Below, in pieces: positions 37,650 to 38,453 of a DNA stretch of 64,000 nucleotides. Position numbers and translations under genes: made by a program. The notes under the pieces are model-generated. The model saw only the letters and a list, made by a program, of their open reading frames with translations, was not told where the DNA came from and made no database searches. Each line of letters starts with the position of its first letter. Positions within the stretch are counted from its first letter, which is position 1. The stretch is from Escherichia phage vB_Eco-B1.1. The DNA lies in sequence record ON871820; one strand, given 5' to 3'.

Positions 37650-37989
37650 AATTTTGGTTTTATGTATAGGATTAATTTCATTTTCTGCTTCTGCGTCAGC
37701 AGATACATCATATACTGAAATTAGAGAATATGTAAATCGCACTGCGGCAGATTATTGTGGGAAAAATAAAGCATGCCAAGCTGAATTTGCGCAGAAATTA
37801 ATATATGCGTATAAAGACGGAGAAAGAGATAAATCAAGCAGATACAAAAACGATACATTATTAAAACGATATGCTAAAAAGTGGAATACCTTAGAATGTT
37901 CAGTTGCGGAGGAGAAAGATAAAGCCGCTTGTCATTCAATGGTTGACCGTTTGGTAGATTCTTATAATCGAGGATTGAGTACTAAATGA
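37642..37989 (+). CDS. small secreted Cys-containing protein (vs-position)
   Basis: 115 aa; signal peptide MTKILVLCIGLISFSASASA; four Cys; T4 vs position relative to regB and tk. Confidence 0.5.
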   Translation: MTKILVLCIGLISFSASASADTSYTEIREYVNRTAADYCGKNKACQAEFAQKLIYAYKDGERDKSSRYKNDTLLKRYAKKWNTLECSVAEEKDKAACHSMVDRLVDSYNRGLSTK

Positions 37990-38453
37990 TTGTAAAATAT
38001 ATCAAGGGCGATATTGTCGCCCTTTTCACTGAAGGTAAAAATATTGCGCATGGATGCAATTGTTTTCATACGATGAAAGCTGGAGTCGCAGGTCAATTAA
38101 CCAAAGCTTTCCCTAAAATTTTGGAAGCTGATAAATTACAGACTGAATGGGGTGATGTAACTAAACTTGGTTCTTACTCAGTCTATGAAAAATACTTTAG
38201 GACTCATAAAGCTTACTGCTTTAATCTTTATACTCAATTTCAACCAGGGCCAAATTTTGAATATTCCGCTTTAATGAATTGTATGTTAGAATTAAATGAG
38301 TTTGGTGAAAATAAACTGATTAAACCTACAATCTATATGCCTAGGATTGGTGCAGGCATAGGTAAAGGGAACTGGGATATTATTGAGGGGATTTTAGATA
38401 CATATTCCTCTAAATTAGAAATTGTGATTGTTGATTGGGAACCATTATTATGA
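37986..38453 (+). CDS. macro domain (ADP-ribose binding/processing) protein
   Basis: 155 aa; N-terminal KGDIVALF...NIAHGCNC...AGVAGQL and C-terminal RIGAGIGKG pattern consistent with the macro/Appr-1-p fold. Confidence 0.55.
   Translation: MIVKYIKGDIVALFTEGKNIAHGCNCFHTMKAGVAGQLTKAFPKILEADKLQTEWGDVTKLGSYSVYEKYFRTHKAYCFNLYTQFQPGPNFEYSALMNCMLELNEFGENKLIKPTIYMPRIGAGIGKGNWDIIEGILDTYSSKLEIVIVDWEPLL

Follow-up and report, generated by a model that had tools for sequence, protein, structure and literature searches.

The tk.4 (adfM) gene of Escherichia phage vB_Eco-B1.1 codes for a predicted stand-alone macrodomain protein of the ALC1-like class and carries a mosaic substrate-loop allele

DarTG2 blocks phage replication by attachment of ADP-ribose to thymidines in phage DNA. 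T-even phages stay resistant to DarTG2 without AdfA and AdfN, and a further factor was therefore predicted (PMC11257639). The gap is filled by tk.4. When a transposon library of phage T4 was screened on Escherichia coli expressing DarTG2 (HIDEN-SEQ preprint, November 2025; 10.1101/2025.11.20.689424), tk.4 was the single significant match, its insertions being depleted on DarTG2 hosts alone, and T4 became sensitive to DarTG2 upon clean deletion of the gene. The authors of that study noted structural likeness to DarG of Mycobacterium tuberculosis, renamed the gene adfM (anti-DarT factor Macrodomain), and proposed removal of ADP-ribose from DNA as its predicted activity. Here we describe the tk.4 gene of Escherichia phage vB_Eco-B1.1, which lies in a 64,000-nucleotide stretch of DNA from sequence record ON871820, referred to as the window; coordinates are compiled in Table 1. 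A preliminary description of the window had called the 155-residue product a macro-domain protein, but did not recognize the named gene. Both gene and function are already known, tk.4 having been annotated as a macro or A1pp protein and functionally assigned since late 2025.

The gene overlaps its neighbors by the sequence ATGA at both ends, where the stop codon of vs meets the tk.4 start and the tk.4 stop meets the start of tk.3, and hence is part of a tightly packed operon. The surrounding 3.4-kb stretch is 98.2-98.5% identical to phages T6, SG1, JEP6, G8, and T2, and the window is a T2/T6-like Tequatrovirus. The order regB, vs.1, vs, tk.4, tk.3 ... tk is the same in the window and in the annotated records of T2, T4, and T6. 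The product shares 152 of 155 residues with Tk.4 of T4, and its sequence is found unchanged (100% identity) in phages G8 and NIC06P2. Because of this synteny and near-identity, including the position between vs and tk.3, the open reading frame is identified from its sequence as tk.4, the ortholog of T4 adfM. Its placement in the interval between regB (Pfam REGB_T4, E-value 1e-68) and tk (Pfam TK, E-value 6e-61), as given in the preliminary description, is correct. Two minus-strand open reading frames over tk.4 (37962-38096 and 38333-38626) were dismissed, given that they are annotated in no public record and that more than 2,700 phage records show conservation of the plus-strand product.

The sole Pfam match of Tk.4 is the Macro family (PF01661; residues 22-132), with 25.0 bits against a curated cut-off of 22 and an E-value of 1.9e-5. 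A family alignment was made of 110 of the 168 homologs from a protein search; all residue counts given below refer to these 110 sequences. The AlphaFold2 model computed with this alignment (predicted local distance difference test score, 96.3; predicted template modeling score, 0.91) displays the three-layer alpha/beta/alpha macro fold. A Foldseek comparison with the PDB matched TARG1, Poa1p, BT1257, and DarG at a probability of 1.00 and template modeling scores of 0.73-0.82, with E-values of 2.7e-10 and 1.4e-9 for TARG1 and Poa1p, respectively. The same four proteins are matched by sequence with the family profile (E-values 8e-20 to 1e-11). The sole NCBIfam and PADLOC matches are DarG models, which are matched over their macro half only and far under the equivalog cut-off: Tk.4 reaches 24.3 bits against a cut-off of 250 for the DarG equivalog NF048014, covering model positions 2-146 of 338, and covers positions 2-145 of 329 of the PADLOC model. 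By structure and by sequence, Tk.4 is closer to TARG1, DarG, Poa1p, and SCO6735 than to the MacroD, viral, PARG, and macroH2A classes. Based on the Foldseek, family-profile, and DarG-model matches, Tk.4 is predicted to be a stand-alone macrodomain of the ALC1-like class, to which these four relatives belong. Sequence, profile, and predicted fold all bear out the earlier macro-domain call, and the macro motifs quoted for it are present at residues 7-14, 19-26, 32-38, and 120-128.

Both glycine-rich ADP-ribose-binding loops are present, the first glycine of loop 1 being replaced by lysine in the window allele. Positions G33, A35, Y82, Q84, P119, I121, and G124 are invariant in all 110 family members, and H22, G23, C24, N25, C26, M30, N80, T83, G88, G122, G128, and W130 are each present in 90% or more. 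Loop 1 thus retains N25 (109/110), which aligns with N27 of SCO6735 and N22 of DarG, together with M30 (108/110), G33, and A35, and loop 2 (P-x-I-G-x-G) is intact, with G122 found in 109 of the 110 sequences. The signatures HGCNC and N-x-Y-T-Q are the family's own. In the alignment, N-L-Y-T-Q84 of Tk.4 corresponds to L-I-T-K84 of TARG1, F-P-T-K80 of DarG, and F-P-T-K of gp104 of phage PhiKZ, and the catalytic dyad Lys84/Asp125 of TARG1 corresponds to Gln84/Gly126. The preliminary description had tied its assignment to a macro fold and to conserved catalytic residues; the fold and the ADP-ribose-binding residues are kept, whereas an invariant glutamine takes the place of the catalytic lysine of DarG and TARG1. 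Because of this replacement, the chemistry of Tk.4 is probably not DarG-like.

A glutamine at the catalytic-lysine position is compatible with hydrolysis of thymidine-linked ADP-ribose (dT-ADPr), as SCO6735 shows (PMC9411070). SCO6735 of Streptomyces coelicolor and BT1257 of Bacteroides (PDB 5E3B and 2FG1/2AFC, respectively) have the same lysine-to-glutamine replacement as Tk.4; they are chromosomally encoded, whereas Tk.4 is phage-borne, and identity to Tk.4 is only 22-31%. SCO6735 rapidly hydrolyzes DarT-made dT-ADPr on single-stranded DNA, shows no hydrolysis of guanosine-linked ADP-ribose, and rescues DarT toxicity; its Q85A and Q85E variants have fully lost activity on dT-ADPr DNA, N27S is nearly inactive, G128E is reduced in activity, and K34E has a small effect only (PMC9411070). 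The alignment of Q84, N25, and G124 of Tk.4 with Q85, N27, and G128, respectively, suggests a glutamine-dependent, water-mediated mechanism. Gln84, held by Asn25, would most likely position the distal ribose as in SCO6735, and a water-mediated step would then cleave the N-glycosidic bond. A glutamine-type view of Tk.4 bears on how the thymidine N-glycosidic bond gets cleaved.

The window protein and Tk.4 of T4 differ at three positions, where the window has T15, K31, and A32 in place of A, G, and S, respectively. A DNA alignment of the two genes reveals 15 nucleotide differences, nine of which fall inside a tract of 19 nucleotides, a clustering reached in none of 200,000 shuffles of a permutation test. 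Within this tract and its flank, ACT ATG GGT TCA GGC GTA GCG of T4 reads ACG ATG AAA GCT GGA GTC GCA in the window, i.e., two amino-acid changes (G31K and S32A) are flanked by four synonymous changes, a pattern as would be expected of a short recombination tract, not of point mutation. A donor was not found by an exact 20-mer scan of IMG/VR, which gave only three contigs; moskry (Mosigvirus) and Bas39 (a divergent Tequatrovirus) were ruled out as donors, having GGC-GCC and GGT-TCA, respectively, at the site. Among phage records, 46 carry the window type, including T6, RB51, RB68, wV7, AR1, SG1, and G8, and 167 carry the T4 type. Two natural substrate-loop alleles are thus in circulation, of which the DarTG2 genetics covers the T4 type only. 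Indirect evidence on the K31/A32 allele comes from its carrier T6, which is part of a collection of phages termed 'all DarTG2 resistant' (PMC11257639). K, R, A, or N stands at position 31 in several independent lineages whose active site is otherwise intact; given these lineages, K31 was judged unlikely to be the mark of an inactivated protein, and comparison of the lineages suggests that the K31/A32 allele is probably functional. SCO6735, BT1257, and DarG have a lysine at the place corresponding to residue 32 (WGKG or MGKG).

Taken as a whole, it appears probable that tk.4 (adfM) codes for an ALC1-like macrodomain which removes the thymidine ADP-ribose made by DarT2. Reversal of toxin-catalyzed ADP-ribosylation of DNA had been among the roles considered in the preliminary description, and it is supported by the T4 genetics of the 98%-identical ortholog (10.1101/2025.11.20.689424). 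The protein would be cytoplasmic and made early in infection from the regB-to-tk operon. Most likely, it would strip ADP-ribose from thymidines modified by host DarT2 on single-stranded phage DNA, so that replication could go on in hosts carrying DarTG2; functionally, Tk.4 would then be a phage-encoded orphan counterpart of the DarG antitoxin.

Several points weigh against this assignment. The literature searched gave no biochemical assay of any Tk.4-type protein and no structure of Tk.4, and its hydrolase activity is accordingly a putative one. The T4 phenotype has been described in a preprint and for the G31/S32 allele, as opposed to K31/A32 of the window, which would have to behave like the tested allele. 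In the [MW]-G-x-G loop, K31 stands in place of the first glycine, which is present in 94 of the 110 homologs and in all aligned solved relatives; this replacement may alter or reduce activity. Tk.4 is devoid not only of the catalytic lysine of DarG and TARG1, but also of Lys89 and Lys94, the DNA-contacting residues in the mobile loop of SCO6735. A mobile loop five residues longer than that of DarG and TARG1 is the hallmark of the SCO6735/BT1257 subclass (PMC9411070); this insertion (GMKTG in SCO6735, GIYKD in BT1257) is absent from all aligned Tk.4-family sequences, and strict membership of Tk.4 in the subclass was rejected on this ground. Neither of the characterized mechanisms, the lysine-based one of DarG and TARG1 or that of SCO6735, transfers cleanly to Tk.4. 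Finally, the catalytically dead variants SCO6735 Q85A, DarG K80A, and TARG1 K84A inhibit DarT in vitro, SCO6735 being the strongest (PMC9411070); Q85A inhibits by binding, and a non-catalytic share in the action of Tk.4 is thus possible.

The last observation agrees with the possibility that Tk.4 neutralizes DarT2 mainly without catalysis, either by binding the toxin or by binding and shielding ADP-ribosylated DNA, all the more as Tk.4 lacks the catalytic lysine and the T4 genetics do not separate binding from hydrolysis. Nevertheless, we consider such a role unlikely: the 155-residue protein lacks a counterpart of the C-terminal half of DarG, which binds DarT, and the residues that are invariant or nearly so across diverse phages (N25, Q84, G33, and G124) make up the active site and not a surface patch co-evolving with DarT2. 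Action on a small ADP-ribose derivative, i.e., ADP-ribose-1''-phosphate as in the case of Poa1p, or O-acetyl-ADP-ribose, with the DarTG2 phenotype being secondary, would be in line with the phosphatase label in RefSeq, and the similarity to Poa1p is real. However, the phosphatase and O-acetyl-ADP-ribose deacetylase labels were transferred from domain names and not from assays, and the sole experimental phenotype is specific to DarTG2. Of the residues mutated in Poa1p, His23 corresponds to His22 of Tk.4 (105/110), a histidine kept in non-phosphatase relatives, too, and Ser30 corresponds to Thr29, which is variable (threonine in 72/110). To our knowledge, T4 tRNA repair by Pnkp and Rnl1 skips the Tpt1/KptA step that makes ADP-ribose-1''-phosphate, and we know of no phage pathway to this compound. 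A small-molecule substrate hence is very unlikely in our judgment, and the 'phosphatase' label is probably wrong.

Besides reversal of DNA modification, the preliminary description had considered removal of ADP-ribose from proteins and breakdown of immune signals derived from it. The proteins could have been modified by host toxins or by the phage's own enzymes Alt, ModA, or ModB, and the signals could be those of Thoeris, for example; such roles can draw on a number of relatives. Cleavage by TARG1 and SCO6735 extends to ADP-ribose on Glu/Asp residues of proteins (PMC9411070), a role in processing soluble ADP-ribose derivatives has been put forward for macro domains of phages (PMC9503650), and TARG1, DarG, and SCO6735 remove uracil-linked ADP-ribose from RNA (PMC13036486), so that a wider substrate range is plausible. 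SCO6735, however, strongly prefers DNA to the protein substrate, the genome-wide T4 screen reports tk.4 as a match for DarTG2 only, and no phenotype was found that connects tk.4 with protein ADP-ribosylation or Thoeris. As far as we know, arginine is the target of the T4 transferases, and no TARG1-class macrodomain is known to cleave the arginine linkage. Such a function seems extremely unlikely.

Returning to removal of ADP-ribose from thymidine as the preferred function, a further-reaching proposal is that Tk.4 represents a third mechanistic subtype of thymidine-ADPr DNA glycohydrolase, which would combine glutamine-based catalysis with a short, DarG/TARG1-like mobile loop and its own HGCNC and N-x-Y-T-Q motifs. 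The substrate loop would be a hot spot of the arms race, where the recombination-imported K31/A32 allele (window, T6, RB51, and about 20% of close relatives) alters substrate handling or escapes a host counter-measure. We regard this proposal as doubtful. If it were true, K31/A32 could shift handling between DNA and uracil-linked ADP-ribose on RNA, or between different DarT2 sequence contexts.

Public labels for tk.4 include 'macro domain protein', 'Poa1p-like family protein', 'high-affinity ADP-ribose binding module protein', and, in RefSeq, 'phosphatase ... contains A1pp phosphatase motif'; the A1pp assignment has been in print since 2006 (PMC1524935). In the tk.4 locus of the Dhakavirus phage IME341 (our locus L011, NC_055742), the RefSeq coding sequence (188-568) starts 87 nucleotides further downstream than in other phages, and a tblastn match including the conserved N-terminal MI..YIKGD segment extends from locus position 101; the annotated start of this gene probably is incorrect. 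In a 2026 preprint using RIL-seq (RNA interaction by ligation and sequencing), chimeras of the host small RNA ArcZ with the tk.4 transcript of phage T2 were reported; an arcZ mutant had an unchanged level of Tk.4 protein. In that preprint, tk.4 is wrongly labeled 'putative thymidine kinase'.

Table 1. Features of the tk.4 region of the window (positions refer to the 64,000-nucleotide stretch)
Feature	Position	Strand	Remarks
vs.6, GrcA/YfiD-like glycyl-radical domain	35455-35817	+	Gly_radical match (PMC1524935)
vs.4 homolog	about 36031-36297	+	
Best sigma-70-like promoter match, upstream of regB	36579..36607	+	TTTACT-17-TATAAT, extended -10 TG; consensus scan only
vs.1, SLT-like transglycosylase	37104..37649	+	181 aa; Pfam SLT, E-value 1.4e-5; signal-peptide-like N-terminus
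vs, 'valyl-tRNA synthetase modifier'	37642..37989	+	115 aa; PHROG 1256; overlaps tk.4 translationally
tk.4 / adfM coding sequence	37986..38453	+	155 aa plus stop; ATG at 37986, TGA at 38451-38453; predicted stand-alone macrodomain
8-bp perfect palindrome	38004..38028	+	AAGGGCGA-tattg-TCGCCCTT, then TTTC; tk.4 codons 7-14; scan
Loop 1 (substrate-binding), N25-A35	38058..38090	+	NCFHTMKAGVA; N25, M30, G33, A35 conserved across family
19-nt mosaic tract	38072..38090	+	Recodes G31-S32 (T4, T2) to K31-A32 (window, T6, G8, RB51, RB68)
Gln84 codon	38235..38237	+	Catalytic-Lys position of DarG (K80) and TARG1 (K84); aligns with SCO6735 Gln85
Loop 2 (phosphate-binding), P119-G128	38340..38369	+	PRIGAGIGKG; G124 aligns with SCO6735 G128 and TARG1 G123
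Two extra small open reading frames between tk.3 and tk.2	38653-38865, 38862-39035	+	38653-38865: Pfam Phage_zn_bind

In a consensus scan, the number of sigma-70-like sites in the region was not above that in shuffled sequence, and no convincing site was found directly before tk.4 that might serve as its dedicated promoter. The best match, upstream of regB, is likely to be the start of an early transcription unit comprising regB-vs.1-vs-tk.4...tk. The palindrome near the 5' end of tk.4 has an RNA fold z of -2.1, and the 26 nucleotides around it are identical, including wobble positions, in Tequatrovirus and Mosigvirus genes, with protein identities of only 57-84%. In a cross-genus alignment, the stem is kept with different loops in a Dhakavirus and a Krischvirus, and is lost in a Marfavirus and a Jiaodavirus; compensatory pairs in the stem were not seen in this alignment. 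The record of phage fPS-2 annotates a 'terminator' at the site. An Rfam scan of 36500-39500 on both strands gave nothing at E <= 1. The palindrome may form an RNA hairpin, a candidate for a weak terminator, an attenuator, or a stabilizing hairpin between vs and tk.4.

The two open reading frames preceding tk.4 have signal-peptide-like N-termini as judged from hydrophobicity, and one of them matches the SLT domain of Pfam, in agreement with the preliminary description. The product of vs.1, which belongs to PHROG 600 ('unknown function'), could be a periplasmic, murein-active protein encoded by an early gene. The N-terminus of Vs (MTKILVLCIGLISFSASASA|D) reaches a Kyte-Doolittle maximum of 3.0, and the mature part contains four cysteines; such an N-terminus would not be expected of a protein whose reported binding partner is a cytoplasmic enzyme. 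The vs gene is needed for plaque formation of T4 in minimal medium (HIDEN-SEQ preprint, 10.1101/2025.11.20.689424). The two extra open reading frames downstream of tk.3 also occur in T2 and T6 (RB32ORF111c, RB32ORF110c) and are absent from the T4 reference, i.e., they are a small, indel-type mosaic difference close to tk.4. We take the vs.4 homolog to be the cyclic-dinucleotide sponge Acb2; if so, the regB-tk neighborhood holds at least two counter-defense genes.

As already described in the literature, T-even phages stack counter-defenses against DNA ADP-ribosylation, AdfA and AdfN being directed against DarTG1 and Tk.4/AdfM against DarTG2. Compared with AdfM of T4, the window gene is the same gene at the same position between vs and tk.3 and of the same length, and all family-conserved residues are identical. 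The DarG antitoxin macrodomain of DarTG2 (PDB 5M3I, 5M3E, 7OMU) differs from Tk.4 in having Lys80 at the position of Gln84. Tk.4 lacks the C-terminal DarT-binding domain of DarG, and no darT gene adjoins tk.4, its neighbors being vs and tk.3 of the phage early operon; score and architecture, the F-P-T-K lysine (L-Y-T-Q in Tk.4), and the darT neighbor all fail to place Tk.4 in the DarG family. TARG1/OARD1 of humans (PDB 4J5R/4J5S) and Poa1p of yeast (PDB 6LFQ-6LFU) share the ALC1-like class and the short mobile loop with Tk.4. TARG1 also cleaves dT-ADPr (PMC9411070, PMC13036486), whereas Poa1p is a small-molecule phosphatase, unlike the role proposed for Tk.4.

Like Tk.4, gp104 of phage PhiKZ, also termed 'AdfM', is a stand-alone phage macrodomain countering DarTG2 (Cell Rep 2026, PMC13309987), and was found to remove DarT2-made dT-ADPr in vitro (PMC13309987). 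PhiKZ gp104, however, is closely DarG-like, with an E-value of 9e-25 to DarG of M. tuberculosis and the FPTK lysine motif. Its match to Tk.4 is weak (E-value 0.017 over 23 residues only), and with this score and a glutamine at the lysine position, assignment of Tk.4 to the PhiKZ-type AdfM proteins was rejected. The name 'AdfM', coined independently by two groups, covers two unrelated macrodomain subfamilies and can mislead annotation. It looks as if these subfamilies, represented by Tk.4 and PhiKZ gp104, had been recruited independently to counter the same toxin.

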